A DNA stretch of 40,616 nucleotides, taken from sequence record PP445227.1; one strand, written 5' to 3'. Source of the stretch: Escherichia phage EC.W1-9. Under the pieces are notes generated by a model. That model had not been told where the DNA came from, did not search any database, and worked only from the letters and a program-made list of their open reading frames with translations. The translations under genes and the position numbers were made by a program. This document shows, in pieces, positions 1,830 to 40,579 of the stretch (position 1 is its first letter; each line of letters begins with the position of its first letter).

Positions 1830-1876
1830 TAAAATGTTCTAATCTCTATTGATTTCATGTCTTATGTGGTTTTTAA

Positions 1877-1891
1877 TTACCTAAGGGGTAA
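1877..1891. promoter_or_regulatory. Palindromic site TTACC-N5-GGTAA
   Basis: TTACCtaaggGGTAA overlapping the SD region of the gene starting at 1895. Confidence 0.5.
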
Positions 1892-1894
1892 ATC

Positions 1895-2242
1895 ATGAGA
1901 AAACAGATACAGGCTCTTGGTCGACTCAAAACAGGCCAGATGAACAAAACAGAATCTGCGTATTGCCAGCACCTTGAGCTGCGTAAACGTGCAGGGGAAA
2001 TCGCCTGGTATCGATTCGAGGGTATCAAGCTGCGGTTAGCTAATAACACGTTCTATACGCCCGATTTCGCTGTGATGCTCGCCACCGGCGAGATGGAGCT
2101 GCACGAAGTGAAAGGGGGATTCTGGACCGATGACGCCAGAGTGAAAACCAAAGTCGCCGCAGATCAGTATCCGTTCCGAATCATCGGGGTAACGGTTAAA
2201 CCAAAGAAAGCAGGTGGTGGCTGGAACATCGAAGAGTTCTGA
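1895..2242 (+). CDS. DUF1064-family phage protein
   Basis: 115-aa ORF with good SD (AAGGGG); sequence style of the DUF1064 proteins that follow replication genes in lambdoid phages (recalled, not searched). Confidence 0.6.
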   Translation: MRKQIQALGRLKTGQMNKTESAYCQHLELRKRAGEIAWYRFEGIKLRLANNTFYTPDFAVMLATGEMELHEVKGGFWTDDARVKTKVAADQYPFRIIGVTVKPKKAGGGWNIEEF

Positions 2243-2303
2243 ATCGACGATCTATTTAGTTATCAATGTAATCAATAAGTTATGTGGATAAGCGAGGGTA
2301 AAG

Positions 2304-2783
2304 ATGGAAAGTAATATCAAAGGGTTAGTTGCCGCCGGGCATGAGATGGCTTCGGAACTGAAAGCAGAATGTGGTGCCGTTGATATGCGCAGTGTGGCAA
2401 AGCTGATCAGCGATTTGGCAACGCAACTGGAAGTGCAACTGGTGCGTGCTAATGCGCTGGCGGCGGAGAGTGCGGCAATGCATGAAACTATTGAAGCCGT
2501 TCGGAGTGTTGCGGATAACTCCAGTGGAATTGCCGGATGGCATTTGAATGGCGATATCGCTACATGGGAAGAGATTCTTCCTGAAATTAACGATATCGAA
2601 ACTCCAGCCACCGATGCTTTCCTGGCTGAAGTACGTGCGCAGGCGTTTAATGACCTTTGCTCGGCGTTCGTTAAACACGCGAATCTCGCGGGAATGGATG
2701 ATGGTGAGCTAGTGAGGCTTAAATATGCGACGGACGCCCTGCTGCATTGTGCGGAACAGCTTCGCAAAGGAGGCAACCAGTGA
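2304..2783 (+). CDS. Hypothetical protein (nin-region-like)
   Basis: 159-aa ORF, SD GAGGG upstream, same strand as the operon. Confidence 0.55.
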   Translation: MESNIKGLVAAGHEMASELKAECGAVDMRSVAKLISDLATQLEVQLVRANALAAESAAMHETIEAVRSVADNSSGIAGWHLNGDIATWEEILPEINDIETPATDAFLAEVRAQAFNDLCSAFVKHANLAGMDDGELVRLKYATDALLHCAEQLRKGGNQ

Positions 2784-3325
2784 GTGTAACGGTTGAAAAG
2801 ATTGATGTGTTGTCATTCGTTATAACCGGTGCAGAGAGACTAGATCCGGTTCGAGTGATGATTGAAAACTATGAACCTGGAAAGGGAAGAATCACCATCA
2901 CCTGCTACGGAAAAGCGTGGACTGCGGCTTGGTTTGCTATGGGCGGTGATGATGTGCAGACGTTCATTAAGCGAGTCAGCAACGACTATCTAATCGACAA
3001 TTTCGACCCTCAACTGCGAAGCACGGTCGACGATGACAACGATGCAAATCTGCTTTTCGTGAAGTCAGAAATCATAAAGTTACGAAGAGAGAGAGAAATC
3101 GACGCCGTACTGGCTCGCGAAATGTGGTACGAGGCGGAAAACGCCGATGACGTAAAAGAAAGCTGCTGCTGTTTCGGCGTCGGTAACAAACTACTGAATC
3201 TCTTTGGTGATGAGCCGTGGTATGCCAACTGGCCAACGATACCAAACCCGAAATACCAGTATCTGGAACGCGTACTTAATGCAGTGAGAGACGGTCTTAA
3301 GCAAATAGAGAAGGTGGAACCATGA
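2780..3325 (+). CDS. Hypothetical protein
   Basis: GTG at 2780 preceded by AAGGAGG and overlapping the upstream stop; the track ORF begins earlier at 2747. Confidence 0.5.
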   Translation: MSVTVEKIDVLSFVITGAERLDPVRVMIENYEPGKGRITITCYGKAWTAAWFAMGGDDVQTFIKRVSNDYLIDNFDPQLRSTVDDDNDANLLFVKSEIIKLRREREIDAVLAREMWYEAENADDVKESCCCFGVGNKLLNLFGDEPWYANWPTIPNPKYQYLERVLNAVRDGLKQIEKVEP

Positions 3326-3621
3326 CTGTATGTCTTATTGATAAACGTCGACGTGGGCAACAAATACCATCTGTTGAAATGCCGAATCACACATGGTTTT
3401 GCGTACTTGATATCGATGGCATGGATAAGTTTGTTGACACTCGTCATTACTGCGATACCGCAACAGCTACTCCGGCGAAAGCAAAGAAAATGGCTGCTCT
3501 GATAGAAAACTGGACTCCACCTGATGGTTGGTGCAATGGGAATGATCGGGATTGGCATGAAAAAATGAAGGGCTATATCTGCGATTTTTTACGTAAATGC
3601 AACGGATTCAGGGTGATGTGA
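3322..3621 (+). CDS. Hypothetical protein
   Basis: ATG overlaps upstream stop (translational coupling), SD AAGGTGG. Confidence 0.5.
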   Translation: MTVCLIDKRRRGQQIPSVEMPNHTWFCVLDIDGMDKFVDTRHYCDTATATPAKAKKMAALIENWTPPDGWCNGNDRDWHEKMKGYICDFLRKCNGFRVM

Positions 3622-3622
3622 C

Positions 3623-4387
3623 ATGAGCAAGATTGACTATCAGGCACTGCGTGCCAAGGCAGAAAAAGCAACGTGTGGTGTATGGTCGCTCGAATATGGA
3701 GAGAGCCGATTTGATGGTGATGATGCGCTAATTCATCGTGAAGTTGCTGGATATATTCCTATTTGCAGAATTGAAGGAGCGCATCCAGAAAGCGGTTTCG
3801 ATGAAGATTTCCAAATGGAACAGCAGGCCAATGCTGAATTCATCGCCGCAGCCAGTCCATCTACCGTGCTGGCACTGCTGGATGAACGGGAAAGAAACCA
3901 GCAATACATCAAACACCGTGACCAGGAGAACGAGGATATTGCGCTAACGGTAGGGAAGCTGCGTGTTGAGCTTGAGGAAGCAAAATCAAAACTCAACGAG
4001 CAACGCGAGTATTACGAAGGTGTTATCTCGGATGGAAGTAAGCGTATTGCTGAACTGGAGAAAAGCGAAGAGCAACTCATTAACGAGCGTGACCATGCTG
4101 AGTCTGCTTTAGCTGATATGTATTTTGCAGCAACCGGGGATAGGCCTGAGTGGAGTAACTGGTTCGGTTTTTCAGATGCAGTAGATGCCGTAGTTGACAG
4201 AATTGCTGATTTAGAAGCTAAACAGCCATCGCCAGTAGTACCTGAAGGACTGATTAAAGCGGTGCGTTTTTATGAGCAGGTAAAACGTGAGAACCCGCCA
4301 GTCGAAACCGGAGCATGGAAAGACGCTGTTGACTGGGTGCTCAAAGAGGCTTGCCAGGCTGTAAACATTGGCATCAAAGGAGAGTGA
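3623..4387 (+). CDS. Ead/Ea22-like protein
   Basis: 254 aa, acidic coiled-coil centre, sequence style of lambdoid Ead/Ea22 family proteins (recalled). Confidence 0.55.
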   Translation: MSKIDYQALRAKAEKATCGVWSLEYGESRFDGDDALIHREVAGYIPICRIEGAHPESGFDEDFQMEQQANAEFIAAASPSTVLALLDERERNQQYIKHRDQENEDIALTVGKLRVELEEAKSKLNEQREYYEGVISDGSKRIAELEKSEEQLINERDHAESALADMYFAATGDRPEWSNWFGFSDAVDAVVDRIADLEAKQPSPVVPEGLIKAVRFYEQVKRENPPVETGAWKDAVDWVLKEACQAVNIGIKGE

Positions 4388-4388
4388 T

Positions 4389-4904
4389 ATGGCGTTAACA
4401 CACCGCGAACTCTGTCAGATTGCGTACAAGTTCCTTAAGCGCAACGGGTTCAAGGTTTGTTTTCATGACCGCTTTATAGCTGTAACCAGTACCGGAGAAC
4501 AGCCAGATGCTATGGGATTCAGAAATTCAGCATCATGCCTGATAGAGGCGAAGTGTTCTCGTGCTGACTTGTTGGCAGATAGAAAAAAGCGTTTTCGTAA
4601 AAATCCGTCTCTTGGAATGGGCGACTGGCGATTCTTTATTAGTGAGCCAGGAATTATTTCAATTGAGGATTTACCACCTGGCTGGGGATTACTTCACGTT
4701 GTTAACGGAAGAGTACGGAAAGTACATGGGTGGCCCAAGGGTAATTGCTGTTGGGGTAATCCTGACGATAAGCCATTTACTGGAAATAAGCAGGTTGAAT
4801 GCGATTACATGTTATCTGCATTAAGGCGCATGGAGTTGAGAGGGCACCTTAATGAAATATATGACGGTGTAATTGTTAATAAGAAAGAAGGAAACGCAGC
4901 ATGA
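4389..4904 (+). CDS. Putative PD-(D/E)xK-type nuclease
   Basis: ATG at 4389 after AAGGAGAG; motif QPDAMGF…CLIEAK fits the D…E-x-K catalytic spacing. Confidence 0.45.
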   Translation: MALTHRELCQIAYKFLKRNGFKVCFHDRFIAVTSTGEQPDAMGFRNSASCLIEAKCSRADLLADRKKRFRKNPSLGMGDWRFFISEPGIISIEDLPPGWGLLHVVNGRVRKVHGWPKGNCCWGNPDDKPFTGNKQVECDYMLSALRRMELRGHLNEIYDGVIVNKKEGNAA

Positions 4905-5830: not shown

Positions 5831-5952
5831 TGAACAAGTGCAACGCTCTGCTTTATGCCATGGTGATTGGTTTCGGCCTGGTTGCTGGTATCCGGGTTTA
5901 TATTACCTGGGAGTCATTAATCAATCTGGCGTGGAGTGCGATTCGTGGCTAA
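5830..5952 (+). CDS. Small hydrophobic protein (40 aa), not in the ORF track
   Basis: ATG overlaps upstream stop (TGATG), GGAGGTGA SD; translation MNKCNALLYAMVIGFGLVAGIRVYITWESLINLAWSAIRG has one predicted TM helix. Confidence 0.45.
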   Translation: MNKCNALLYAMVIGFGLVAGIRVYITWESLINLAWSAIRG

Positions 5953-6247
5953 ATCCCCCGCAGAACGCAAAGCCGCGCAGCGCGCTCGGCAGTCCGCCGC
6001 CGGTGAGCGCAAAATTGAACTGGTGCTGGATAAGCAGGAGCAGGAAATGCTGGCGCGGAACTGCGCCGCCCGGCGCCCTGGTCGCGATCCCTATGAAATG
6101 GCCGAGTACATCGCGCTGCTGATCCGCCAGGATGATGCACGTGTGCGCGGGCGTATAAAATCGATCAGCAGAAACTTTGCGGTAAGTGCGGCGAGAGAGT
6201 TCCCGTTAATTCATGCCCGTGTAATGGTGACTCGCAATGCTGGGTGA
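5936..6247 (+). CDS. Hypothetical basic protein in a locally GC-rich segment
   Basis: 103-aa ORF from GTG; Arg/Ala-rich; start uncertain and overlaps the small ORF. Confidence 0.35.
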   Translation: MRFVAKSPAERKAAQRARQSAAGERKIELVLDKQEQEMLARNCAARRPGRDPYEMAEYIALLIRQDDARVRGRIKSISRNFAVSAAREFPLIHARVMVTRNAG

Positions 6248-6331
6248 CTAAAGGCTGGCATGAAACGAAATTAATAGTGTGACATGTCACGAGTAGATTA
6301 TGCATGATGAATTTGATGGGTTTTGAATACT

Positions 6332-6358
6332 GCCGCCAACTATGGCGGCTTTATTTTG
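6332..6358 (+). terminator. Rho-independent terminator-like hairpin upstream of the terminase genes
   Basis: GCCGCC-aactat-GGCGGC followed by TTTATTTTG. Confidence 0.55.
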
Positions 6359-6368
6359 CATGGTACTA

Positions 6369-6383
6369 TTACCACAACGGTAA
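6369..6383. promoter_or_regulatory. Palindromic site TTACC-N5-GGTAA
   Basis: TTACCacaacGGTAA; a weaker second copy TTACCatggtGGTTA at 6387-6401. Confidence 0.45.
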
Positions 6384-6400
6384 CAATTACCATGGTGGTT

Positions 6401-6997
6401 ATGATGCCTGCTGAACCTAAAACCTATAAACGCAAATCAACGCAATTTAAGCCACTAACCGCAATGCAGGAGGCTTATTGCCAGTCATACATCAAAACGC
6501 CTGAAAACCAGACTCAGGCAGCGATTAACGCAGGATTCTCCCCAAATACAGCGGCAGTTAAAGCCAGTGTCATGATGCGCGATGAACGCATTCAAAAACG
6601 GATTGCCGAGTTGATGGAGGAGCGCAACAAACGAATGCGCGTCAGTGCCGATTACGTTCTCATGCGCCTGGTGGAGATCGACCAGATGGACGTGATTGAT
6701 ATCCTCAATGACGATGGGAGCCTTAAGCCAATCCGCGAGTGGCCGAAAATCTGGCGCACTACGCTTAGTGGCTTTGATCTGTCATCGACCATCATGAACA
6801 TGAACGAGGATTCGATAGAGACAATTCTCAAAAAAATTAAATGGCCTGACAAGGTGAAGAACCTCGAACTGATTGGTAAGCACGTCGACGTCAATGCATT
6901 CAAAGAACGCCTGGATGTTAATGTGAATGTGACAATTGCTGATCGCATAGCGGCAGCCAGGAAGCGACTCAAAGAACGTCAGGATGGTAATCAGTGA
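6401..6997 (+). CDS. Terminase small subunit
   Basis: AYCQSYIKTPENQTQAAINAGFSPNTAAVKAS region typical of phage small terminase; directly upstream of the large terminase. Start taken at the ATG at 6401 rather than the TTG at 6323. Confidence 0.7.
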   Translation: MMPAEPKTYKRKSTQFKPLTAMQEAYCQSYIKTPENQTQAAINAGFSPNTAAVKASVMMRDERIQKRIAELMEERNKRMRVSADYVLMRLVEIDQMDVIDILNDDGSLKPIREWPKIWRTTLSGFDLSSTIMNMNEDSIETILKKIKWPDKVKNLELIGKHVDVNAFKERLDVNVNVTIADRIAAARKRLKERQDGNQ

Positions 6998-8463
6998 CAG
7001 ATACAGCGTTATCTCCTGAAGAGCAGTTGATCGAGGATATTGCAGGGTTCACTCACGATCCGCTTGGCTATGCCCTCTATGCGTTCCCGTGGGGGGAAGA
7101 GGGGACTGAACTGGCACATGCTACCGGCCCACGTCAGTGGCAGGCTGATGCGTTCCGAGAGATACGTGATCACCTGCAGAATCCAGAGACGCGCTATCAG
7201 CCGCTTATGCTGGCACGCGCTTCTGGTCACGGTATTGGTAAATCCGCATTCATCTCAATGCTGATCAACTGGGGCATGTCCACTTGCGAGGATTGTAAGG
7301 TCGTGGTGACCGCCAACACCGACAACCAGCTACGAACGAAGACCTGGCCGGAAATTATCAAGTGGTCGAACCTTGCTATCACGAAAGACTGGTTTACCTG
7401 TACCGCTACTGCGATGTACAGCAATGATCCTGGGCACGACAAGCGGTGGCGAGCTGACGCAATCCCCTGGTCTGAGCACAACACTGAGGCATTCGCCGGA
7501 CTACACAACGAGCGCAAACGCATCATCGTGGTATTCGATGAAGCGTCGAACATTGCGGATCTGGTGTGGGAAGTTGCTGAGGGTGCGCTTACGGACGAAG
7601 ACACTGAGATTATCTGGGTGGCGTTCGGAAACCCTACACGTAATACCGGGCGTTTTCGCGAATGTTTCCGCAAATACAAACACCGCTGGAAAACTGCGCA
7701 GATTGACAGCCGGACGGTGGAAGGTACTAACAAACAGCAGTTGCAGAAATGGGTTGATGACTACGGGGAAGACAGCGACTTCGTTAAAATCCGTGTGCGC
7801 GGCATATTCCCTGATGCATCTGAATTGCAGTTTATCCCTACCGGTCTTACTGATGAGGCAATGAAACGGGTGGTAACCGCTGCGCAGGTTGCACATGCTC
7901 CGGTGATAATCGGCGTTGACCCGGCATACTCCGGAGTTGATGACGCTGTGATATACCTGCGGCAGGGGCTGCACAGTAAGGTGCTGTGGACTGGCAACAA
8001 GACCACTGACGATCTGATAATGGCGAAGCGTATCGCTGACTTTGAAGACCAGTACCAGGCTGACGCAGTGTTCATCGACTTCGGTTACGGAACTGGTCTG
8101 AAGTCAATCGGTGACGGCTGGGGTCGTACATGGCAACTTGTTCCGTTCGGTGGCGCGTCTACTGACCCGCAGATGCTCAACAAGCGTGGGGAGATGTTCA
8201 ACTCATGCAAGACATGGCTGAGGCTGGGCGGGATGCTGGATGACCAGGAAACAGCAGACGACCTGTCGACGGCAGAGTACAAAGTTCGCGTGGACGGTAA
8301 AATCGTTATCGAACCGAAGGAAGATATCAAAGAGCGACTTGGGCGTTCGCCGGGTAAAGGTGATGCGCTGCTGCTAACGTTCGCCTTCCCGGTAGCCAAG
8401 AAAACTAATGACCCACGGCAGCAGCAGGGGAAAGCTATTACTGAGTACGATCCGTTTTCATAA
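6994..8463 (+). CDS. Terminase large subunit
   Basis: 489 aa; Walker A-like ARASGHGIGKSAF; acidic nuclease-type C-terminal half; GTG start overlaps the small-subunit stop. Confidence 0.8.
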   Translation: MTDTALSPEEQLIEDIAGFTHDPLGYALYAFPWGEEGTELAHATGPRQWQADAFREIRDHLQNPETRYQPLMLARASGHGIGKSAFISMLINWGMSTCEDCKVVVTANTDNQLRTKTWPEIIKWSNLAITKDWFTCTATAMYSNDPGHDKRWRADAIPWSEHNTEAFAGLHNERKRIIVVFDEASNIADLVWEVAEGALTDEDTEIIWVAFGNPTRNTGRFRECFRKYKHRWKTAQIDSRTVEGTNKQQLQKWVDDYGEDSDFVKIRVRGIFPDASELQFIPTGLTDEAMKRVVTAAQVAHAPVIIGVDPAYSGVDDAVIYLRQGLHSKVLWTGNKTTDDLIMAKRIADFEDQYQADAVFIDFGYGTGLKSIGDGWGRTWQLVPFGGASTDPQMLNKRGEMFNSCKTWLRLGGMLDDQETADDLSTAEYKVRVDGKIVIEPKEDIKERLGRSPGKGDALLLTFAFPVAKKTNDPRQQQGKAITEYDPFS

Positions 8464-8467
8464 AGTT

Positions 8468-9073
8468 TTAAGCAGCATTGTCTGTGTTGCGATTGTTCCT
8501 TGAGTTAAACTTATTTGCAATTCTGGTATTGGATTTTATTTTTTCTTCTGCAAGTTCTTTTTCAAGCGCCATTATTTTTTCAATAAGGGAATCTCTTTCC
8601 TGCAAAAAAGAATTCAAAGACTCTTGGTGCTTGATTAAATCATTTTTATAGAATTGAATCTCAGACTCAAACTCAACCTTAACTCTGTCGTATGTAATGT
8701 CCCTTTGTGCCTCAAGCTTACGCAATTCTATGGCGTTTTTAACATCCCTGAGGCTTTTGTTGTGTTTGAAGTTATCGATGTTCTGTAGTGGAATTTTTTG
8801 AAACATCACCACTATATTGTTAAACCATGGAACTATTACACACAGCGCGAATGCACATAAAGCTGGATATAAGAGTGAGTGGTACGCATCACTATGGGAA
8901 GATATATAATTTATTTTTTCTTCAATTCCTGACTTACTGAAGAATAAAAATAATAGTGGATTCCAGTTAAAAGAACACCACGAAAACACAAATGCCCCAA
9001 GTGCTGGGTTGCGGACTCTCTCTGACGCTGTGCTAATAGCCGATGATGCGATCTCTTTAAATTGCTCGAACAT
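8468..9073 (-). CDS. Accessory (moron) membrane protein with C-terminal coiled coil
   Basis: 201-aa ORF on the opposite strand to the late operon, visibly AT-rich; two hydrophobic helices then a Lys/Glu-rich heptad region; palindromic site 33 bp upstream. Confidence 0.6.
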   Translation of the reverse strand: MFEQFKEIASSAISTASERVRNPALGAFVFSWCSFNWNPLLFLFFSKSGIEEKINYISSHSDAYHSLLYPALCAFALCVIVPWFNNIVVMFQKIPLQNIDNFKHNKSLRDVKNAIELRKLEAQRDITYDRVKVEFESEIQFYKNDLIKHQESLNSFLQERDSLIEKIMALEKELAEEKIKSNTRIANKFNSRNNRNTDNAA

Positions 9074-9105
9074 GTCTAAACCAGATGTTAAATGTTTTTG
9101 TTATC

Positions 9106-9120
9106 TTACCTTCAAGGTAA
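9106..9120. promoter_or_regulatory. Palindromic site TTACC-N5-GGTAA
   Basis: TTACCttcaaGGTAA upstream of the minus-strand moron gene. Confidence 0.5.
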
Positions 9121-9323
9121 CGTTCAGTCACCAGGCAAAAAAATGCCCGGCGAACCGGGCGAACTGGAAGCAATGAGTTATGCCTTCCGTGGCTGTACTG
9201 GTTTACAGCATGAAGTCATCGCAATGGCGTCCTGCTGTAAAAAGGGCGGTGATAGTCCTTCAAGGGAAACAGTCACCGCCAATCCCCTGGAACTTCTGGC
9301 ATCACGGTCCTTAGGCGTGATTC

Positions 9324-9400
9324 TGGCGTGGCATGCAGGATTCGAACCTGCGACCAACCGCTTAGAAGGCGGTTGCTCTGTCCAACTGAGCTAATGCCAC
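9324..9400 (-). tRNA. tRNA-Arg (anticodon UCU)
   Basis: Reverse complement folds as a cloverleaf: acceptor GTGGCAT/ATGCCAC, D-arm GCTC…GAGC, anticodon stem ACCGC/GCGGT with loop CTTCTAA, T-arm GCAGG-TTCGAAT-CCTGC, discriminator G, encoded CCA; 77 nt. Confidence 0.85.
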
Positions 9401-9729
9401 AACGCTGAGAGCACTGGTTTGGCTCGATATCAGGTAGGGTGGAACAGCCCGCTAATATCCAATGCTCTCATCGTTGTACCCTCGTCTCTTCCGAGGCGTC
9501 ACACCGAATCGCCGGGATGGTGAATCCCCGTGCGCGGAATAAAACCGCTCGACTTGCACATTCCGGCTACCTGGTTCGTTTGCCCGAGCAAGGGAGGGTG
9601 CCCCTTAAACGTATCCAGACCGCTATCGTCGCATGTGCCATACGCCGTACTGCTCAAAATAAAAGCTCACTCCACCTGTTCAATTTAACGACAAGCCAGT
9701 CAGGTTAGTAACCGGAATGAACTCTTTGG

Positions 9730-9744
9730 TTACCTTAAAGGTAA
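9730..9744. promoter_or_regulatory. Palindromic site TTACC-N5-GGTAA
   Basis: TTACCttaaaGGTAAT upstream of the head-gene cluster. Confidence 0.5.
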
Positions 9745-9834
9745 TAATTCGTGCATTAAATGTCAACTGTCTACGATAAATAAATCATATGTGGTTAAAT
9801 TGGTAATAATTTAATTGCGTACGGAGTCATTGAT

Positions 9835-10041
9835 ATGTGCATGGGTAGCTCACCATCAGTGCCTGCAACACCAGAAGTTCAGGCAGCACCACAGGAGCAG
9901 GATGCCGCCGTTGTTGATGCCCGCGACGAAGAAACTCGTCGCCGTCGCGCTGCTGCTGGTCGTAGTTCTACGCTGCTTACCGGTTCTCAGGGCGACACAT
10001 CAACCGCTAATACCAGCGGTAAAACGCTGCTTGGTCAGTAA
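9835..10041 (+). CDS. Small hydrophilic protein
   Basis: 68-aa ORF, GGAG 7 nt upstream of the ATG; low-complexity, Arg/Ala-rich. Confidence 0.45.
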   Translation: MCMGSSPSVPATPEVQAAPQEQDAAVVDARDEETRRRRAAAGRSSTLLTGSQGDTSTANTSGKTLLGQ

Positions 10042-10055
10042 CCGGAGTCATTGAA

Positions 10056-11735
10056 ATGGCGGAAACAACTAAAGAGCGATTGAACAAACAGTTCGCACAA
10101 CTTGAAAGCGAGCGTCAATCGTTCGAGCCGCACTGGCGCGAGTTGAGTGATTACATCAACCCGCGTGGTTCCCGCTTTCTGACTTCTGAGGTCAACCGTA
10201 ACGATCGACGCAATACACGTATTATTGATTCGACCGGGACTATGGCGGCGCGCACTCTCGCCAGCGGCATGATGTCAGGCATCACAAGCCCCGCGCGTCC
10301 GTGGTTTCGCCTGGCTACGCCAGATCCTGAAATGATGGATTATGGCCCTGTTAAGTTGTGGCTTGAGGCGGTGCAGAACCGCATGAACGATATGTTCAAT
10401 AAGTCGAATCTCTATCAGTCTCTGCCGCAGTTATACGGAAGCCTCGGCACATACAGCACTGGTGCAATGGCAGTGCTGGAGGATGACGAGGACATCATTC
10501 GCACAATGCCATTCCCGATAGGCAGTTACTACCTGGCTAACTCACCTCGTGGCAGTGTGGACACCTGTTTTCGCAAGTTCTCTATGACTGTTCGTCAGCT
10601 TGTTCAGGAGTTCGGGCTAAATAACGTCAGCGAATCCGTAAAAAGCATGTGGGAAAGCGGCACCTACGAGAAGTGGATTGAAGTGATGCATTCGGTTTAC
10701 CCGAACATTGACCGCGATGCATCGAAGCTGGATAGCAAGAACAAGCCATTCAAATCGGTTTATTACGAGGTTGGTGGCGATAACGACAAGTTGTTGCGCG
10801 AGTCCGGATTCGATGAGTTTCCAATTATGGCTCCGCGCTGGGAAGTTAACGGCGAAGATGTTTATGGATCATCATGCCCGGGTATGCTGGCGCTTGGACC
10901 TGTTAAGGCATTGCAGCTTCTCCAGAAGCGCAAGTCGCAGTTGATTGATAAAGCCACCAATCCGCCGATGGTTGCTCCGACTTCCCTCAAGAATCAGCGC
11001 GCCTCCCTTCTTCCTGGCGACATCACGTATATCGATCAGATTACTGGTCAGGATGGCTTCAGGCCTGCTTATCTGGTTAACCCCAGTACAGCAGATTTGG
11101 TGGCAGACATTCAGGACACTCGTCAAATCATTAACAGCGCCTACTTCGTCGATCTGTTCATGATGTTGCAGAACATCAATACCCGCTCAATGCCTGTTGA
11201 AGCGGTGATCGAAATGAAAGAAGAAAAGCTTCTGATGTTGGGGCCGGTTCTGGAGCGTCTGAACGACGAATGTCTTAATCCTCTCATTGACCGCGCTTTC
11301 TCGATGATGGTGCGTAAAAACATGCTGCCGCCACCGCCTGACGCGATGGAAGGTATGCCCCTGAAGGTCGAATACATTTCTGTCATGGCTCAGGCGCAGA
11401 AGTCTATCGGCCTGTCCAGTCTGGCGTCCACGGTTAACTTCATTGGTCAACTTGCGCAAGCGAAACCAGAAGCTTTCGACAAACTCAACGTTGATCAGGC
11501 GATCGATGCATTCGCTGATATGTCCGGAGTGTCTCCAACCGTCATTGTTCCGCAGGAACAGGTTGAGCAGGCTCGCCAGCAACGGGCACAGCAACAACAG
11601 CAGCAACAAATGATGGCGATGGGGATGGCGGCGGCACAGGGTGCCAAGACGCTAAGCGAAGCTAAAACTTCGGATCCGAGTGTTTTGTCAGCTATGGCGA
11701 ATGCAGTTAGTGGTCAGGGTGGGCAATCACAATGA
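10056..11735 (+). CDS. Portal (head-to-tail connector), T7 gp8-like
   Basis: 559 aa, follows the terminase; Gln/Met/Ala-rich C-terminal tail (QQQQQQQMMAMGMAAAQGA) parallels the T7 gp8 C-terminus. Confidence 0.75.
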   Translation: MAETTKERLNKQFAQLESERQSFEPHWRELSDYINPRGSRFLTSEVNRNDRRNTRIIDSTGTMAARTLASGMMSGITSPARPWFRLATPDPEMMDYGPVKLWLEAVQNRMNDMFNKSNLYQSLPQLYGSLGTYSTGAMAVLEDDEDIIRTMPFPIGSYYLANSPRGSVDTCFRKFSMTVRQLVQEFGLNNVSESVKSMWESGTYEKWIEVMHSVYPNIDRDASKLDSKNKPFKSVYYEVGGDNDKLLRESGFDEFPIMAPRWEVNGEDVYGSSCPGMLALGPVKALQLLQKRKSQLIDKATNPPMVAPTSLKNQRASLLPGDITYIDQITGQDGFRPAYLVNPSTADLVADIQDTRQIINSAYFVDLFMMLQNINTRSMPVEAVIEMKEEKLLMLGPVLERLNDECLNPLIDRAFSMMVRKNMLPPPPDAMEGMPLKVEYISVMAQAQKSIGLSSLASTVNFIGQLAQAKPEAFDKLNVDQAIDAFADMSGVSPTVIVPQEQVEQARQQRAQQQQQQQMMAMGMAAAQGAKTLSEAKTSDPSVLSAMANAVSGQGGQSQ

Positions 11736-12028
11736 CAGATTACGAAGACGATCAACTGAAAGAAGAAAACGCCCGTAAGCAACGTGACATGGCACAGCGT
11801 GAAATTGATGACATTCGCTTTGTCATGAGCAGTGAACAGGGGCGTCGCGTTGTCTGGTCTGTGCTGGAGAAAGGCCGGGTGTTTTCCGCTATCTCACCGA
11901 TGGACGCTATGGCAATGGCATTTAATGAGGGGCAACGCAATCTGGCGCTGGAACTGTTTCAGCGCGTTATGGCGCATTGCCCTGAACAGTATTTGAAGAT
12001 GGCCAAAGAGGCCAGTGAACAGGAGTGA
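11732..12028 (+). CDS. Hypothetical head-module protein
   Basis: 98 aa; ATGA overlap with the portal stop. Confidence 0.55.
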   Translation: MTDYEDDQLKEENARKQRDMAQREIDDIRFVMSSEQGRRVVWSVLEKGRVFSAISPMDAMAMAFNEGQRNLALELFQRVMAHCPEQYLKMAKEASEQE

Positions 12029-12030
12029 TC

Positions 12031-12726: not shown

Positions 12727-12740
12727 GAGAGGAGATAACA

Positions 12741-14216: not shown

Positions 14217-14226
14217 GGTGATATTG

Positions 14227-28982: not shown

Positions 28983-28983
28983 T

Positions 28984-29263: not shown

Positions 29264-29339
29264 CTTATCTTCTCCATGCAATAACTGTATGTTTATACAG
29301 TAACAAATAATTTGTTTGCTATCCAGCACGTTTTGCAAA

Positions 29340-29354
29340 TTACCCGAAAGGTAA
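29340..29354. promoter_or_regulatory. Palindromic site ATTACC-N5-GGTAAT (perfect)
   Basis: In the divergent intergenic region between the 29263 gene and the tailspike. Confidence 0.55.
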
Positions 29355-29458
29355 TATCTATTGGTATTTATAGTCTTTTTATCCATATATGGTTTTTCAG
29401 GTAATAGAATAACCAGATATGCGGCGCAACGGGTGCTGCGACTATCTGGAGATTTAAC

Positions 29459-31333: not shown

Positions 31334-31587
31334 TTAGAGATGTTAGCAATAACAATATATCGTCATTCAGAATTGATGGTTCATATAGAGTTGTTGGTGG
31401 AAGTGTTGGTCTTAGTTTTGCTGATGCTTATTCGAAACTCGGGGTGGATGCAAACTCTATAACAGTGTCAAACAATAACAGCACTTCTGACAATATCAGC
31501 ATAGCAATTAAAAACACAGATTCATCAAAAACCCTTCAGGTTACTGTTATGCCTGAGGTTTCAAGCAGGTTAGGTATTGAGGAATAG
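31234..31587 (+). pseudogene. Alternative-frame continuation of the tailspike C-terminus
   Basis: Frame with codons at 31234… is open to TAG 31585-31587 and encodes beta-rich …GSTGIVSLQIPSGASLVFRGVSIWV…ISSFRIDGSYRVVGGSVGLSFADAYSKLGVDANSITVSNNNSTSDNISIAIKNTDSSKTLQVTVMPEVSSRLGIEE; the two frames meet at CCCCCC 31249-31254. Confidence 0.5.
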
Positions 31588-31663
31588 CATCATATATAAT
31601 TATTTTAATGTTAATGCCGTCTTCTTGTTGGCGGCTTATTTGTGAAAATGGAATGAGTTATTT

Positions 31664-31963
31664 ATGATGAATATAGATGTTGATATAACACCAATTCTTC
31701 ACGCACTTTGCGCTGTTGTCGCACAAGTTCTGGTCGGTCTTTTTACCGGAAACTGGGCTTACGGTGCGATAGCCGGTTGTACGTTCTTCATTGCGCGTGA
31801 ACACACCCAGGCAGAATATCGCTGGATAGAAAAGTTTGGGAAAGGGAAACGTATCAACATGCCGTGGTGGGGAGGTTTTGATCCGCGCGTATGGGATGTT
31901 GGAAGCCTGTTTGACTTTGTTGTTCCTGTTACTGTTTGTTTTTGTGTTTATTTCTCTATTTGA
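31664..31963 (+). CDS. Small membrane protein
   Basis: 99 aa with two hydrophobic segments; between the tailspike and the lysis cassette. Confidence 0.45.
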   Translation: MMNIDVDITPILHALCAVVAQVLVGLFTGNWAYGAIAGCTFFIAREHTQAEYRWIEKFGKGKRINMPWWGGFDPRVWDVGSLFDFVVPVTVCFCVYFSI

Positions 31964-32185
31964 CTGCTACCGCGCCATTTGATGGTGCGGAATTCAACTA
32001 ATCCTCTATATTTTGAATCATTTCTGTACTGCAATCTCTTCAGAGTTATGTAAAAGGCAAGCCTTATTATCGACATGAAAGGAAGGGGATTGACAATGCA
32101 TGGGTAACAAAAAACCATAAATGGTTTATCATGCGTAATGCCTTTACTATTCAGGAGGTAGTTATGCATATAAACGGTGGAAAAC

Positions 32186-32590
32186 ATGTCAGCTCAACTA
32201 ACCAGTGAAACTTTAAATCAGTGGCTTAGCATGAGTTCTCTGGCGGCGGTGATAGCAGGAGTTCCTCCTGAGGTTGCTTTGGGGGCTTTGGCTGGGGCGG
32301 TAATTTTTGTTACCTCTGCGGTAGAGTATCCTATTCGTCGTCGTGTACTCTTGTCGATGCTTAGCTTTCTCTGCGGCCTTCTTTTTTATAAACCAGCAGC
32401 ATCAATTCTTATCGGCATAGCCAGCCTGATCCCTACCATCACGCAGGACTCTTTTGAAAAAGGGATTGTTTTCTCAGCTGGCGCATTCGTGTCAGCAATT
32501 GTTGCTGTGCGTATTGGTATATGGCTCTATCACCGTTCCGATAATCCACGCGAGTTAATTCCGGGGAGAAAAGACGATGGTAACGCATGA
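32186..32590 (+). CDS. Holin-like membrane protein
   Basis: Three hydrophobic helices, charged C-terminus, first gene of the lysis cassette; ATG at 32186 after GGTGGA. Confidence 0.55.
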   Translation: MSAQLTSETLNQWLSMSSLAAVIAGVPPEVALGALAGAVIFVTSAVEYPIRRRVLLSMLSFLCGLLFYKPAASILIGIASLIPTITQDSFEKGIVFSAGAFVSAIVAVRIGIWLYHRSDNPRELIPGRKDDGNA

Positions 32591-32885
32591 GTTTTTTTTG
32601 CTTATCACCAATGCAGTTATTTGTACTGGCATAGCAATTCGCGTTGTCACATTCCGGCGTAACGGCTCTCAACATCGAAGATGGGGAGGGTGGCTTGCTT
32701 ATTTCCTTATTGTTGCTGCGGCCAGTATTCCTGTTCGTGTCGTCTATGCAATCTGGTTACGCACGCCAATGGCTGTGGATTTATCTGAGGTCATTATCAA
32801 CGCTGTCATGCTTGCCGCGGTTATTAAAACACGCGGTAACGTTGTTCAGATTTTCAAAATATCGAGGTCTAAACATGGAGATTAA
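32577..32885 (+). CDS. Holin/antiholin-like membrane protein
   Basis: 102 aa, three hydrophobic segments, GGGGAGAA SD, overlaps both neighbours. Confidence 0.55.
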
Positions 32886-33504
32886 ACAATTCCAGCGAGC
32901 TGCTGGTATTAGCGAGTCGCTGGCCGCACGCTGGTTCTCGCATATAACTTCTGCGATGAAAGAGTTTGGTATCAGCAAAGCAGAAGATCAGGCAATGTTT
33001 ATTGCTCAGGTCGGGCATGAGTCTGGGGGCTTCACCCGGTTGCAGGAGAATTTCAACTACAGCGTCAGCGGACTGGCTAACTTTGTTCGGGCTGGGCGTC
33101 TCACTCAGGGACAGGCCAACGCATTGGGGCGACGCGCAGGCGAACCACCATTGCCACTTGAGCGCCAGAGAGCGATTGCCAATCTGGTGTACAGCAAACG
33201 CATGGGGAACAATGCCCCCGGCGATGGCTGGAATTACCGTGGCCGCGGACTTATCCAGATTACCGGTTTGAATAACTATCGTGATTGCGGAAACGGCCTG
33301 AAAGTGGACCTGCTGGAGAATCCTGAACTGTTGGCGCAGGACGAATACGCGGCTCGTAGCGCGGCGTGGTTCTTCTCCAGCAAAGGTTGCATGAAGTATA
33401 CCGGCGATATTGCACGTGTAACTCTGATTATCAATGGTGGCAGGAATGGCATCGACGACCGGCGCGCGCGGTACGTCACTGCCAGTAAGGTGCTGGCTGT
33501 ATGA
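32875..33504 (+). CDS. Endolysin, glycoside hydrolase family 19-like
   Basis: [10 protein letters not shown]…[12 protein letters not shown] pattern typical of GH19 phage endolysins; ATG at 32875 chosen over the upstream track start. Confidence 0.7.
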
Positions 33505-33983
33505 TCTGGTCATTCGTAAAAGCATACCGTAAACAGTTGATTATCATGGCGGTGCTTGCTGTTCTGGTCATATCAGGAGTTGTTGCCTGGAATGTGCACG
33601 GCAGTCGTCAGTACGACGCTGGGTATGCACAGGCGAAAGAAGACCGCAAAACAGAAGATGAGAGAGTTCGTCAGCACTACGAACAGGAGAAATCGATCAA
33701 TGAACGTGAAGCGCAGCAGAGGATCGACCAGGCGCGCAATGATGCTCTTGATGCTGCCGCTCGCGCTGGCCGGTTGCAGCAACAGCTCGTTGCCATCCGT
33801 GAGCAGCTCAGGCACTATAACGCCATTGTCGGCGCTGGGTCGTCAGCCGCAGACACCGGAGTTTTGCTTGCCGACGTGTTCAGCAAATCTCTCGAGAGAA
33901 ATAGACAACTGGCAGAGTATGCTGACCGGGCAGCCGAAGCCGGAAGAGTCTGCGAAAAACAGTACGACACCCTGACCAGATAG
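33501..33983 (+). CDS. i-spanin (Rz-like)
   Basis: N-terminal TM helix then Gln/Arg/Glu-rich coiled coil; ATGA overlap with the endolysin stop. Confidence 0.7.
33739..33975 (+). CDS. o-spanin (Rz1-like lipoprotein) embedded in the +1 frame of the i-spanin gene
   Basis: [17 protein letters not shown]… lipobox LAGC, Pro-rich mature part, wholly nested in the Rz-like gene. Confidence 0.65.
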   Translation: MMLLMLPLALAGCSNSSLPSVSSSGTITPLSALGRQPQTPEFCLPTCSANLSREIDNWQSMLTGQPKPEESAKNSTTP

Positions 33984-39306: not shown

Positions 39307-39325
39307 AACTTGTTACCTCGGTCTG

Positions 39326-39340
39326 TTACCGTTGAGGTAA
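39326..39340. promoter_or_regulatory. Palindromic site TTACC-N5-GGTAA
   Basis: TTACCgttgaGGTAAT 20 bp upstream of the leftward operon's first gene; an extra TTACC half-site at 39313. Confidence 0.5.
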
Positions 39341-39387
39341 TAATTATGCGTATATGGTTTGATGTCAATAGATATGAGTTAAAAAAA

Positions 39388-39402
39388 TTACCCGTTAGGT
39401 AA
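39388..39402. promoter_or_regulatory. Palindromic site ATTACC-N5-GGTAAT (perfect)
   Basis: Second site in the same control region. Confidence 0.5.
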
Positions 39403-39414
39403 TCGAATAGGCAA

Positions 39415-39459: not shown

Positions 39460-40044
39460 TTATTGTTTGTTTTTTTCGTTCTGGTTGATGACAAATTCAA
39501 TGTAACTTTCGATCTTTGCTTTCTCGGTTTCGGGTAACAATGCGTAGCGCGAGCGATCATAGTTGATGGTCGCAGGGTCGTGCGGGTGAATCAGTAATTC
39601 ATAGCCGTGACGCCCGAATGCGGATGCAACATTCTCCAGGGTGGAAATGGAAACGCTGACCTCATTGTTTAACAGGCGGCTGATTGTCACCTGGGCTACG
39701 CCGGATGCGCGGTGAAGTTTTCCCTGTGTTGAAAGGTCGCGGCTTTCGCTCATCCAGCGTTCCAGGTTGTGAGCCGCCAGCTGGCCAATGTCGCTTGGGC
39801 CGACAGGCTGAAAACCTTCCTGAGAAAGCGAGCGATCGATATCAAGCCAGTTACGGGGTTTATTGGCGGCAGCTTCAATTTTTCGCGCAACCTGATCGCC
39901 GATAACCTTCTTACCAAGAGCCCAGCGGTTTACCAGATTTGCCTGAGTTCCAAGTTTTTCAGCCATCCGCGTCTGAACACCATTGAATTCACGGTCGATC
40001 AAGTCGTTGAGATTTTGCCTGCGGACGTCCTGGATACTTTTCAT
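39460..40044 (-). CDS. Repressor-like DNA-binding protein with two HTH-like segments
   Basis: 194 aa; segments LGTQANLVNRWALGKKVIGDQVARKIE and SGVAQVTISRLLNNEVSVSISTLENVASAFG look like XRE-type HTH units; divergent from a Cro-like gene across a triple-site region; no S24 peptidase motif noticed. Confidence 0.5.
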   Translation of the reverse strand: MKSIQDVRRQNLNDLIDREFNGVQTRMAEKLGTQANLVNRWALGKKVIGDQVARKIEAAANKPRNWLDIDRSLSQEGFQPVGPSDIGQLAAHNLERWMSESRDLSTQGKLHRASGVAQVTISRLLNNEVSVSISTLENVASAFGRHGYELLIHPHDPATINYDRSRYALLPETEKAKIESYIEFVINQNEKNKQ

Positions 40045-40098: not shown

Positions 40099-40113
40099 AT
40101 TACCCAACAGGTA
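40099..40113. promoter_or_regulatory. Operator-like site 1 of the divergent control region (ATTACCcaacaGGTAAA)
   Basis: TTACC-N5-GGTAA between the repressor-like and Cro-like genes. Confidence 0.55.
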
Positions 40114-40115
40114 AA

Positions 40116-40130
40116 TGCACCTCATGGGTA
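40116..40130. promoter_or_regulatory. Operator-like site 2 (GCACCtcatgGGTAA, imperfect)
   Basis: Centre 17 bp from site 1. Confidence 0.35.
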
Positions 40131-40146
40131 ACTATCCTTGATTTTT

Positions 40147-40161
40147 GTTACCTTATGGGTG
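40147..40161. promoter_or_regulatory. Operator-like site 3 (TTACCttatgGGTGA, imperfect)
   Basis: Centre 31 bp from site 2; triplet arrangement. Confidence 0.45.
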
Positions 40162-40198
40162 AATATTTATTATCTGAAATAAATATCAGGCAATAGCT

Positions 40199-40429
40199 AT
40201 GAGCGATAACGGACATTTCGATTTCAAAAAGCACTGGCTTGCACTTACTCCGGATGAGCGTGAAGCCTTCGCACAGGAAGCCGGAACGACGAGTCACTAT
40301 ATCCAGACTCACTTAACAGGTAAGCGCAAAATGCCAGGTAAAGTATTGATGAATGGGCTTTTTAAAGCCTGTAAAACAAGACAATGGCTGCGCTCAAAAG
40401 CAGAACTGGCATACTTCTTCTACTCATGA
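40199..40429 (+). CDS. Cro-like small DNA-binding protein
   Basis: 76 aa, transcribed divergently from the repressor-like gene, followed by a terminator; possible HTH in FAQEAGTTSHYIQTHLTGKR. Confidence 0.45.
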   Translation: MSDNGHFDFKKHWLALTPDEREAFAQEAGTTSHYIQTHLTGKRKMPGKVLMNGLFKACKTRQWLRSKAELAYFFYS

Positions 40430-40461
40430 TATCCAGCTACAACCCTCTGTAGACCGCCACC

Positions 40462-40483
40462 CGGCGGTCTTTTCATATCTATT
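40462..40483 (+). terminator. Rho-independent terminator downstream of the Cro-like gene
   Basis: GACCGCC-accc-GGCGGTC followed by TTTT. Confidence 0.6.
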
Positions 40484-40484
40484 C

Positions 40485-40499
40485 GTACCTCAAAGGTAA
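40485..40499. promoter_or_regulatory. Palindromic site gTACC-N5-GGTAAT (imperfect)
   Basis: Directly after the terminator; AACCAAATATGGTT follows. Confidence 0.4.
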
Positions 40500-40579
40500 T
40501 AAAAAACCAAATATGGTTGATATTTTTTTTGTGTCAGCACAAAATGACCGTAATCCCAATACTAATAACAGGGCTTACC

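Follow-up and report, generated by a model that had tools for sequence, protein, structure and literature searches.

A 14-bp palindrome in helical phase with the Rep operators of phiV10/epsilon15-like phages: a candidate second operator class for a two-headed repressor

INTRODUCTION

Which protein reads a palindrome that accompanies the repressor operators of a temperate phage from promoter to promoter? The question is raised by the genome of Escherichia phage EC.W1-9 (sequence record PP445227.1), the whole 40,616-bp stretch of which is referred to here as the window and which carries two recurrent intergenic sequences. The first, ATTACC-N5-GGTAAT, is found 11 times with no more than one mismatch, compared with 0.09 expected. 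Considering that the GenBank record of epsilon15 annotates sites of this 17-bp type as protein_bind "repressor" and that the repressor of the window, Rep, is homologous to that of SPC32H, these sequences are known Rep operators. The second, TAT(A/G)TGGTTT, had been described in a first-pass annotation of the sequence as a motif lying usually near the first, and had been attributed to a bipartite control region serving two regulators, or one regulator and a promoter element.

Here we report that the second motif belongs to a 14-bp palindrome that is conserved in sequence, position and spacing, and propose, with a likelihood that we place a little above even, that it constitutes a second operator class, forming with the 17-bp sites a bipartite operator that would be read by one two-headed repressor, Rep, through its middle HTH_3 domain. 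Close relatives of the window, phiV10, phiv142-3, PAS61, ZX5 and TL-2011b, match it at 95-97% along most of the sequence, and epsilon15, SPN1S and Tyrion are more distant matches; all are temperate podoviruses of the genus Uetakevirus, and the window is phiV10/epsilon15-like. As far as the literature was checked, neither this operator class nor such a role of the middle domain has been described, the 17-bp operators being already known: full-text searches with the operator words, with CCATATATGG and for Uetakevirus promoters returned nothing on this motif, the ZX5 paper only predicts four promoters, and the palindrome is not annotated in the records of epsilon15 and phiV10.

RESULTS

The recurrent motif is the better-kept half of a 14-bp palindrome

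The exact word TATRTGGTTT occurs five times in the window (1863, 27938, 29007, 29386 and 39351), always on the plus strand, compared with 0.18 expected, and none of 100 shuffles reached five. Eight of the 22 copies of the looser core T[AG]TGGTT fall within the 8.5% of the window classed as non-coding, and behind the operator words the most enriched intergenic 7-mers are ATATGGT, ATGGTTT and TATGGTT. The motif is therefore real, non-random and enriched in non-coding DNA, which confirms the first-pass observation in part. TAT(A/G)TGGTT forms the right half, and the better-kept one, of an imperfect 14-bp palindrome, A-W-C-C-N6-G-G-W-T, with an AT-rich N6 and the consensus ATCCATATATGGTT. The 14-mer AACCATATATGGTT has nine matches in the window at three or fewer mismatches, compared with 1.85 expected, a number reached in 0 of 100 shuffles, and pattern ATTACCNNNNNGGTAAT of the 17-bp operator captures no palindrome copy even when two mismatches are allowed.

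A position-weight-matrix scan had been proposed in the first-pass annotation as a check. With a matrix trained on the relatives only, six intergenic sites in the window scored between 18.6 and 26.3 bits (29381, 32113, 9783, 40505, 27933 and 39346), while the best score in shuffled sequence averaged 13.6 and reached 20.9 at most. The 32 distinct sites in the relatives yield the consensus A-(T/A)-C-C-(A/G)-T-A-T-(A/G)-T-G-G-T-T, in which A1, C4, T8, G11, G12 and T14 are each invariant (32/32) and the centre is AT-rich.

Ten copies had been listed originally, seven of which belong to the palindrome. Those at 9788, 27937, 29386, 32118, 39351 and 40511 are strong, and the one at 1863 combines a weak score with a conserved position: the palindrome to which it belongs, at 1858, is the positional homologue of AACCGTATATGGAT in Tyrion and ATCCGTTTATGGTT in BUCT711, with sites there in all relatives. 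The copy at 29007 is a relic that corresponds, as 29002-29015, to the complete P_ant site AACCTTATCTGGTT of phiV10, beside the end of the small Ant gene; an inserted two-gene cassette (28031-28982) parts it from the copy at 27933 in the window. The remaining two, at 34276 and 39451, were taken as chance occurrences because their scores are low, 34276 is absent from epsilon15 and 39451 is altered from G to A in phiV10. The palindromic form that had been pointed out at 32112 and 40503 is real and turns out to be the general form of the motif rather than the exception.

The palindrome is conserved in place and in helical phase with the operator

We compared the window with phiV10, epsilon15, SPN1S, Tyrion, Klebsiella phage BUCT711 and Enterobacter phage BUCT554. 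In these six genomes the dyad is found at the same promoter regions, namely gp3/portal, tail fibre, lysis, p42/replication, DUF1064 or RuvC, pL and the ant region, and alignments made promoter by promoter show dyad and operator as islands of identity amid diverged spacers. The arrangement at p42, consisting of the operator, 4 nt, the palindrome and GATC, is present in 7/7 genomes and in all 8 prophage fragments that cover the region; the portal block TAT(G/A)TGGTTAAATTGGTAATAATTTAA is the same in seven genomes save for one A/G position; and the lysis site, which is followed in the relatives by TATGAT or TATAAT 7 nt further on, is a perfect AACCATATATGGTT in phiV10 and Tyrion. The pL copy is degenerate in epsilon15-type genomes, and one epsilon15 copy sits at the start of a predicted RNase III site. 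The three copies near rep (p42, pL and DUF1064) were seen as well in 8 prophage fragments, which represent seven genera of Enterobacterales (Citrobacter, Erwinia, Kluyvera, Buttiauxella, Pseudocitrobacter, Scandinavium and Klebsiella), eight of the nine loci found through the Cro-like protein p41 having usable flanks.

The association of the two motifs, already noted in the first pass, extends to their distance, which we measured from centre to centre in the genomes where the scan found both sites. The palindrome lies 52.5 bp from operator 9729-9745 at the portal promoter (five genomes where the site was found), 40.5 bp from operator 29339-29355 at the tail-fibre promoter (six genomes, with a diverged 25-nt spacer), 43.5 bp from the operator at the lysis promoter (four relatives), 41.5 bp at the ant promoter (window, phiV10 and Tyrion) and 19.5 bp at p42. 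At DUF1064 it stands 42.5 and 19.5 bp from two flanking operators, themselves 62 bp apart, in all relatives scanned, and at pL 19.5 and 42.5 bp from operators 39325-39341 and 39387-39403. Across 67 distinct metagenomic Uetakevirus loci, 19.5 was seen 62 times and 42.5 was seen 79 times. The 24-36 nt that separate operator and palindrome have diverged strongly with almost no insertions or deletions, and every distance falls within 1.5 bp of 21, 42 or 52.5 bp, corresponding to about 2, 4 or 5 turns of B-DNA, which places both sites on one face of the helix. The spacing had been called variable; it does differ between promoters, yet it is quantised and invariant within each promoter class.

A second link between the two site types is provided by half-sites. 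GGTAA/TTACC lies within 14 nt of 31 of the 35 palindromes, usually 4-5 nt off, compared with 6% at random positions; at the tail-fibre promoter of the window, for instance, the palindrome is followed by GGTAAT at 29400-29405 and by a -10-like TAGAAT at 29405-29410. As all good copies are located in promoter regions beside Rep operators, the idea of a bipartite control region is supported in outline, with the correction that its unit is the 14-bp dyad and not the 10-mer. At the pL of a Scandinavium prophage (L015, 3149-3165), an operator-like ATTACCAAAATGGTTAT occupies the place of the spacer palindrome, suggesting that either type of site can serve at that position.

Two heads of Rep, each related to repressors that lie amid one type of operator

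Rep of the window matches the SPC32H Rep structure 5d50 with an E value of 4e-42 (structures 5d4z and 5d50). SPC32H Rep is composed of an N-terminal DNA-binding domain, a middle dimerisation domain and a C-terminal domain for tetramerisation and Ant binding (PMC9986798, summarising Kim et al. 2016); it forms a tetramer that the antirepressor splits into dimers, thereby weakening DNA binding (PMC9638917, PMC9986798), and the mode of repression of this type of repressor has "not been extensively characterized" (PMC9986798). In the window protein, a YdaS-like helix-turn-helix (HTH) covers residues 21-61 (N-terminal HTH, ~nt 40035-39841), a Pfam HTH_3 match (E 1.2e-9) covers residues 106-147 (middle domain, ~nt 39795-39595), and the third, C-terminal part is that of tetramerisation and Ant binding. 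The HTH_3 region is the published middle dimerisation domain, and Rep is the only one of 10 window proteins in which the Pfam scan found an HTH_3 match.

A search of phage genomes with the middle domain led outside the genus to cI of Pseudomonas phage PAJU2, a classical repressor with an HTH and an S24 peptidase, the N-terminal DNA-binding domain of which is 40% identical to Rep residues 84-143 (E 1e-11). Three 14-bp ANCC-N6-GGNT dyads lie to the left of PAJU2 cI (ATCCATCCGTGGAT, ATGCGCATGCGGAT and ATCCGCCTGCGGTT) and three more between cI and cro (ATCCGTATGCGGCT, ATTCATATACGGTT and ATCCATGAATAGAT), amounting to 6 sites in ~150 bp compared with ~0.2 expected. The same head is found in HTH+S24 repressors encoded by ten more viral contigs (L022-L031). 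In the six of them whose flanks were read, AGCC/AACC-N6-GGNT dyads stand beside the repressor gene, several being near-identical to window copies (AGCCGTATATGGTT, AACCGTATATGGAT), and ATTACC-N5-GGTAAT is present in 0/10 of the contigs.

The N-terminal head of Rep keeps different company. Over residues 1-68 it shares 38% identity (E 1e-10) with CI of Psychrobacter phage pOW20-A, which has a peptidase C-terminal part; the interval between CI and Cro of that phage contains ATACC-N5-GGTAT operators of the first-motif type, and no AT-rich ANCC-N6-GGNT dyad was found in the pOW20-A intergenic regions. Four viral contigs with an N-terminal-type head (L180-L183) carry three TACC-N5-GGTA sites upstream of the repressor gene and no ANCC-N6-GGNT dyad beside it; they were obtained by a scan led by the pOW20-A head, a scan led by the Rep N-terminal domain having given identical phiV10-type loci only. 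In a six-frame search of the window, PAJU2-type heads matched significantly only the middle of rep (39592-39783, E 3e-12), the pOW20-A CI head matched the rep N-terminus, and pOW20-A Cro matched p41 (E 1.6e-11). The association is thus two-way: the N-terminal head and the Cro-like protein go with TACC-N5-GGTA, and the middle HTH_3 head goes with ANCC-N6-GGNT. Instead of two regulators, or a regulator and a promoter element, as first supposed, this comparative evidence favours a single regulator with two DNA-reading domains.

The same comparison bears on p41, which might bind the palindrome beside or instead of Rep in lytic growth, turning early promoters down and perhaps others up. The protein is small, has an HTH, lies in the Cro position and matches PHROG 35 'transcriptional repressor' (E 5.6e-13); its recognition helix GTTSHYIQ(T/V)HLT is, like the motif, invariant, in six genomes save for one T/V position; its homologues in the phage collection are restricted to Uetakevirus and one Psychrobacter phage; and the palindrome occupies the spacer at pL and DUF1064, early promoters at which a Cro-type repressor would be expected to act. 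Nevertheless, we regard this reading as improbable, mainly because pOW20-A pairs its p41 homologue with TACC-N5-GGTA only, with no such palindrome in its intergenic regions, although this is a single case and the helix differs at several positions. In addition, the promoter region of p41 itself has no palindrome, strict helical phasing with the Rep operator is unexpected for proteins acting at different times, and sites at late promoters make little sense for a Cro.

Likewise, the palindrome could be occupied by a host protein conserved in Enterobacterales, for example a global or DNA-bending regulator, that would aid or modulate looping by Rep. An architectural factor would be compatible with the fixed helical phase relative to the operator, and the motif does not vary among phages of E. 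coli, Salmonella, Klebsiella, Enterobacter and Citrobacter in which identity falls to 57-60% for the portal protein and to ~40% for Rep. The chance of this is nevertheless slim, as in Pseudomonas-type phages the same operator type stands beside genes of homologous repressors, which points to a reader carried by the phage, the palindrome misfits both the LexA core CTG-N10-CAG and the IHF consensus WATCAANNNNTTR, and no E. coli regulator consensus is known to match it. Known sites were also compared with the copies one by one. None of the copies fits CTG-N10-CAG, the genuine LexA-type box being elsewhere (29285-29300); neither the copies nor their flanks fit the IHF consensus, and the IHF sites predicted in the epsilon15 record are located elsewhere; sigma-54 sites, DnaA boxes and CRP half-sites showed no fit on direct reading; and an RNA hairpin was dropped since the inferred start sites are downstream of most copies.

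Weaker sequence relatives of the middle domain with solved structures are nearly all DNA-binding HTH proteins, and the recognition-helix signature Q-x-T-(I/V)-x-R is kept in most Rep middle domains. A likeness to HipB (helix QATIS), the half-site of which is TATCC, was set aside as a generic HTH_3 resemblance (hhalign probability 72%); Ralstonia phage Dina, which encodes a distant homologue of the middle domain, has no interpretable operators; and a word-index protein search with the 68-aa middle domain returned five near-identical fragments only.

The palindrome lies in or beside predicted promoters at varying positions

Promoters were predicted by comparison with the consensus and from the conservation of hexamers. 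Each of the seven copies falls inside or next to a consensus -35/-10 match or a conserved -10-like hexamer, and three arrangements can be distinguished. At DUF1064 and pL the dyad occupies the spacer, its centre at about -19.5, with TTGATT (1849-1854), 3 nt, the dyad and TTTAAT (1872-1877) at the former and TTGACA (39368-39363), 3 nt, the dyad and AATTAT (39345-39340) at the latter. At p42 and at the leftward isrK-C4-ant promoter it shares 2 nt with the -35, TTGATA (40517-40522) and TTGAAA (27934-27929), respectively, and is centred near -42.5; the corresponding -10 hexamers are CAAAAT (40540-40545) and TATTAT (27910-27905), the latter overlapping operator 27890-27906. At the lysis, portal and tail-fibre promoters, which have no good -35, the dyad ends 7-10 nt before the -10-like hexamer and is centred at -26.5 to -29.5. 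A protein bound to the palindrome would collide with RNA polymerase at every promoter.

Placement within or beside every predicted core promoter could also be expected if RNA polymerase itself recognised the motif as an intrinsic promoter feature, be it an unusual -35, an extended -10 or an element of the spacer, and at two promoters the last TT of the motif indeed starts the -35, as in GGTTGATA and GGTTGAAA. We give this explanation very little credence. The gap between palindrome and inferred -10 is not constant, measuring 0 nt (DUF1064, pL), 7-10 nt (lysis, portal, tail fibre) or 20-22 nt (p42, ant); the motif is a dyad, and its orientation to transcription differs between promoters; and the spacers of sigma-70 promoters are known not to be conserved in sequence. 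With such varying placement against the inferred core hexamers, a plain -35/-10 role lacks support.

The same variation argues against a single classical activator, and thereby touches the possibility that another phage regulator (p55, an AlpA-family protein, a PerC-like protein or p42) binds the palindrome for temporal control, for example by activating late promoters without a -35. The best palindromes are those at the late promoters (lysis, tail fibre and portal), where -35 hexamers are poor, these small regulators are conserved across the genus, and no recognisable Q-type antiterminator is present in the genus annotations seen. However, p55 is an unlikely reader because Pectobacterium phage ZF40 encodes a homologue that is 59% identical and has no match to the motif even at three mismatches, and because p55 is frameshifted in the window and in several relatives that keep the motif; p42 is an unlikely one because its zinc-finger domain is generic, being widespread in unrelated lytic phages; and nothing ties AlpA or PerC to the palindrome sequence. 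The phasing with Rep operators and the likeness to PAJU2-type operators are left unexplained by all of these regulators, and as a whole this explanation appears doubtful. A class II activation geometry at the late promoters was considered separately and dropped, as no -10 is found at 20-22 nt downstream.

A two-contact clamp as a possible mechanism of repression

A differing position relative to the -10 fits a repressor, and Rep is our candidate reader of both site types. According to our proposal, the dimer of middle HTH_3 domains would read the 14-bp site that covers the core promoter. Within the same oligomer, the N-terminal HTH domains would bind the 17-bp operator or the adjacent half-site. 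The operator, 4 nt away or ~4 to 5 helical turns away, would be on the same face of the DNA, and the DNA between would be wrapped or looped. In a lysogen, tetrameric Rep might thus clamp each lytic promoter by two kinds of contact, the 17-bp site serving as the high-affinity anchor and the 14-bp site, over the -35, the spacer or the -10, excluding RNA polymerase; break-up of the tetramer by the antirepressor would free both contacts. Such a clamp would explain silencing where the sole full 17-bp operator is 55-75 bp upstream of the inferred -10, as at the tail-fibre, lysis and portal promoters. A two-headed Rep would also explain why the spacing is locked in phase, why half-sites lie close by, why the palindrome covers the -35, the spacer or the -10, and why an operator-like site replaces it at the pL of the Scandinavium prophage.

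In its most general form, the proposal holds that Rep is a fusion of two repressor DNA-binding heads from different immunity families, the middle domain being a fully functional second head, and that one tetramer reads a 17-bp TACC-N5-GGTA and a 14-bp AWCC-N6-GGWT site in helical phase at every lytic promoter, in a POU-like mode not known to have been described for a phage repressor. We consider the odds of this form to be balanced. The analysis shows the motif, its conservation, its phased spacing, the two HTH domains of Rep and the homology of each of them to repressors found among one operator type; binding of the middle domain to the palindrome is predicted, as are the promoter hexamers, the start sites and the mechanism of repression.

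Several observations weigh against the proposal. The rep-cro intergenic region, with its three 17-bp operators, has no copy of the palindrome. The recognition helix of the middle domain varies (AQVTISR, AQATINR, GQATVNR and the epsilon15-type GPATVNR) while the palindrome consensus remains constant. No covariation links the motif to one protein, because all Uetakevirus relatives share the same motif; when a change of specificity was sought in the prophage loci, all carried the same operator and palindrome. The PAJU2-type dyads are presumed to be operators from their position around cI, and the promoters are consensus matches only. The published structural work (per PMC9986798) assigns DNA binding to the N-terminal domain and dimerisation to the middle one, and the recognition helices of the middle domain may be buried or wrongly spaced; a single-sequence AlphaFold model of Rep was too poor for use (mean pLDDT 45).

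Genome context and further features

The window has the gene order of phiV10 (Table 1). The p42-like zinc-finger gene (MEIITRIDAAKRGLKRYYTGKTCKHGH...) runs over both of its ends (40586-40616 joined to 1-164), and the window is therefore a complete, circularly permuted genome.

Table 1. Palindromes, Rep operators and gene blocks of the window (positions in nt; scores from the weight matrix)
Feature	Position	Strand	Sequence	Remarks
Palindrome, degenerate left half	1858-1871		TGTCTTATGTGGTT	Rightward promoter of the DUF1064...p55 operon; 10.1 bits (weak)
Palindrome	9783-9796		AATCATATGTGGTT	Upstream of gp3-like/portal operon; 21.1 bits; followed by Rep half-site GGTAAT 9802-9807
Palindrome	27933-27946		AACCCTATATGGTT	Leftward isrK-C4-ant promoter; 19.1 bits
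Relic, right half only	29002-29015		TTCTTTATGTGGTT	3' end of small Ant gene; 11.2 bits, inside shuffle range
Palindrome, best in window	29381-29394		ATCCATATATGGTT	Upstream of tail-fibre gene (29459); 26.3 bits
Palindrome	32113-32126		AACCATAAATGGTT	Upstream of lysis cassette (32177); 23.7 bits; preceded by half-site GGGTAAC + 4 nt
Palindrome, degenerate left half	39346-39359		ATGCGTATATGGTT	Leftward early promoter pL; 18.6 bits
Palindrome	40505-40518		AACCAAATATGGTT	p42/replication operon promoter; 21.0 bits; 4 nt downstream of operator 40484-40500
Rep operator pair, 62 bp apart	1814-1830		ATTACCTGGAAGGTAAT	Flanks DUF1064 promoter palindrome
	1876-1892		ATTACCTAAGGGGTAAA	
Rep operator	9729-9745		GTTACCTTAAAGGTAAT	Portal-operon control region
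Rep operator	27890-27906		TTTACCGAAAAGGTAAT	Overlaps -10 of leftward isrK-C4-ant promoter
Rep operator	29339-29355		ATTACCCGAAAGGTAAT	Between LexA-controlled small-Ant promoter and tail-fibre promoter
Rep operator pair, 62 bp apart	39325-39341, 39387-39403			pL
Three Rep operators	~40099-40115, 40116-40132, 40147-40163			Between rep and cro-like gene
Degenerate Rep operator	40484-40500		CGTACCTCAAAGGTAAT	4 nt upstream of p42-promoter palindrome
Replication genes	180-1777			
nin-like block	up to ~6280			
Terminase, portal, head and tail genes	6323-25723			
Antirepressor region	26008-29386			
Tail fibre gene	start 29459			
Lysis genes	32177-33983			
Integrase	34301			
Leftward early operon	to 39166			
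rep	39460-40044	-		194 aa
cro-like gene (p41)	40199-40429	+		76 aa; homologue of phiV10 p41

Further operator-like sequences were noticed during the scans. A second operator at the terminase promoter (6386-6402, ATTACCATGGTGGTTAT) has the right arm GGTTAT, as does the pL site of the Scandinavium prophage. Split arrangements consist of ATTACC, 18 nt and GGTAAT in the p42 leader of epsilon15 (L002, 33789-33816), with similar ones in two further loci (L009 and L010), and of ATACC, 15 nt and GGTAT in pOW20-A (L017). A half-site ATTACC right after the p42-promoter -10 CAAAAT is kept across most of the genus, the window having GACC and a few relatives being variant. Between the portal operator and the palindrome, a block GTCAA(T/C)-N5-CTACG is conserved at ~9759-9775 and at the homologous positions of six genomes; on the minus strand it reads as TTGACA, only 11 nt from the nearest -10-like hexamer.

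The antirepressor region contains two RNAs recognised by Rfam on the minus strand, the C4 antisense RNA (27672-27759, 78.6 bits) and the isrK Hfq-binding RNA (27778-27854, 74.7 bits), directly upstream of the large antirepressor gene (26931-27668, minus strand). C4, isrK and ant form an immI-like, RNA-controlled ant module with a leftward promoter that is predicted to be Rep-controlled. The small antirepressor gene, a homologue of the SPC32H type (29006 to ~29277, minus strand), has upstream of it a consensus LexA box, CTGTATGTTTATACAG (29285-29300), that is conserved in seven genomes and overlaps a promoter TGGATA-17-TACTGT; a weaker CTG-N10-CAG (CTGAAATAAATATCAG, 40174-40189) is found in the leader of the cro-like gene. 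Between the two antirepressor genes, a moron-like insertion absent from phiV10 (27984-28999) brings in the two genes of the cassette together with a promoter-like TTGCCA-18-TAGAAT, a terminator (28984-28999) and a degenerate operator (28015-28031). On each side of the insertion stands a copy of the right half of the palindrome (27938-27948 and 29007-29017), and this duplicated half may have served as the recombination junction of the insertion.

Elsewhere in the window, the gene of a DnaT-like replication initiator (180-995) contains three adjacent tandem-repeat arrays (485-616) with periods of 18, 24 and 12, the 24-bp unit being 100% identical across 2.6 copies; these arrays are probably origin iterons. 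The p55-like regulator (5936-6282) combines a ribbon-helix-helix-like N-terminus with a CGKCG...CPC zinc-finger C-terminus; its frame ends at 6247 with the zinc-finger part in another frame, and the same two-piece match is seen in phiv142-3, HEMP4 and O157 typing phages 9 and 10. A tRNA-Arg gene (anticodon TCT, 9324-9400, minus strand) lies between the terminase genes and the portal operon and is possibly served by a leftward promoter-like TAGACA-18-AATTAT (9773-9744), the -10 of which overlaps operator 9729-9745. G+C content falls to 0.376 over 30001-32000, a stretch comprising the 3' part of the tail-fibre gene and the next gene (31664-31963), which suggests a recently exchanged host-range or conversion module.

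DISCUSSION

If the proposal holds, a domain described as a dimerisation module, in a repressor of solved structure, would also be a DNA-binding head, and the silencing of late, lysis and tail-fibre promoters with a 17-bp operator far upstream would be explained. It would also represent a new regulatory logic arising from fused immunity modules, with consequences for heteroimmunity and for the evolution of operator grammar. Considering that phiV10-type phages are used as E. coli O157 reporter phages and epsilon15/SPN1S-type phages as Salmonella tools, the full set of operators matters for promoter engineering.

Compared with the 17-bp Rep operators, the palindrome occurs in the same genomes and at the same promoters, shares dyad symmetry and CC...GG arms, and always appears together with them in helical phase; both are probably bound by the same protein complex. 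The two differ in that the arms of the palindrome are (A/T)CC and GG(A/T), 6 nt apart, whereas those of the operator are an invariant ACC and GGT, 5 nt apart; in that conservation extends to the inner six bases of the palindrome, ATAT(A/G)T, but not to the free N5 of the operator; and in that the palindrome is absent from the rep-cro region and from the annotations of the epsilon15 and phiV10 records.

Operators of HTH_3 (Xre-family) repressors of phage 434 and P22 type are 14-bp dyads of 4-6-4 structure, such as ACAA-N6-TTGT. The palindrome has the same length, four-base arms and an AT-rich six-base centre, the domain in question is likewise an HTH_3 domain in a phage repressor, and the sites lie in or beside predicted core promoter elements. 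In contrast, the arm sequence is a different one, the sites are spread over seven promoters rather than grouped as three at OR and three at OL, and the HTH_3 domain of Rep is internal to a three-domain protein, in which it has so far been described as a dimerisation module. The palindrome also resembles the operators assigned by position to PAJU2-type cI repressors, which have the same ANCC-N6-GGNT frame and in some cases a sequence near-identical to window copies (ATTCATATACGGTT, AGCCGTATATGGTT, AACCGTATATGGAT). There, however, the head is the N-terminal domain of a classical self-cleaving repressor, the sites form OR and OL triplets, and the centre of the PAJU2 sites is richer in G+C; the second base of the arm is T in PAJU2 and G in L030, as against A/T in the palindrome.

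Tetrameric looping repressors with a p53-like tetramerisation domain have been described, namely Rco of plasmid pLS20 and Rep of SPC32H (PMC9986798). A tetramer is expected to bridge two DNA sites, and whole-turn spacing fits looping or wrapping; the models for these proteins involve two copies of one operator type, whereas in the window the second site would be of another sequence class.

Bipartite recognition by two tethered DNA-binding domains is known from eukaryotic POU-domain proteins. The analogy with Rep would be a functional one, with two different reading heads per polypeptide and sub-sites in more than one spacing and orientation. It implies no homology, and the heads of Rep would differ from those of POU proteins in acting within a tetramer and over distances of up to five helical turns.

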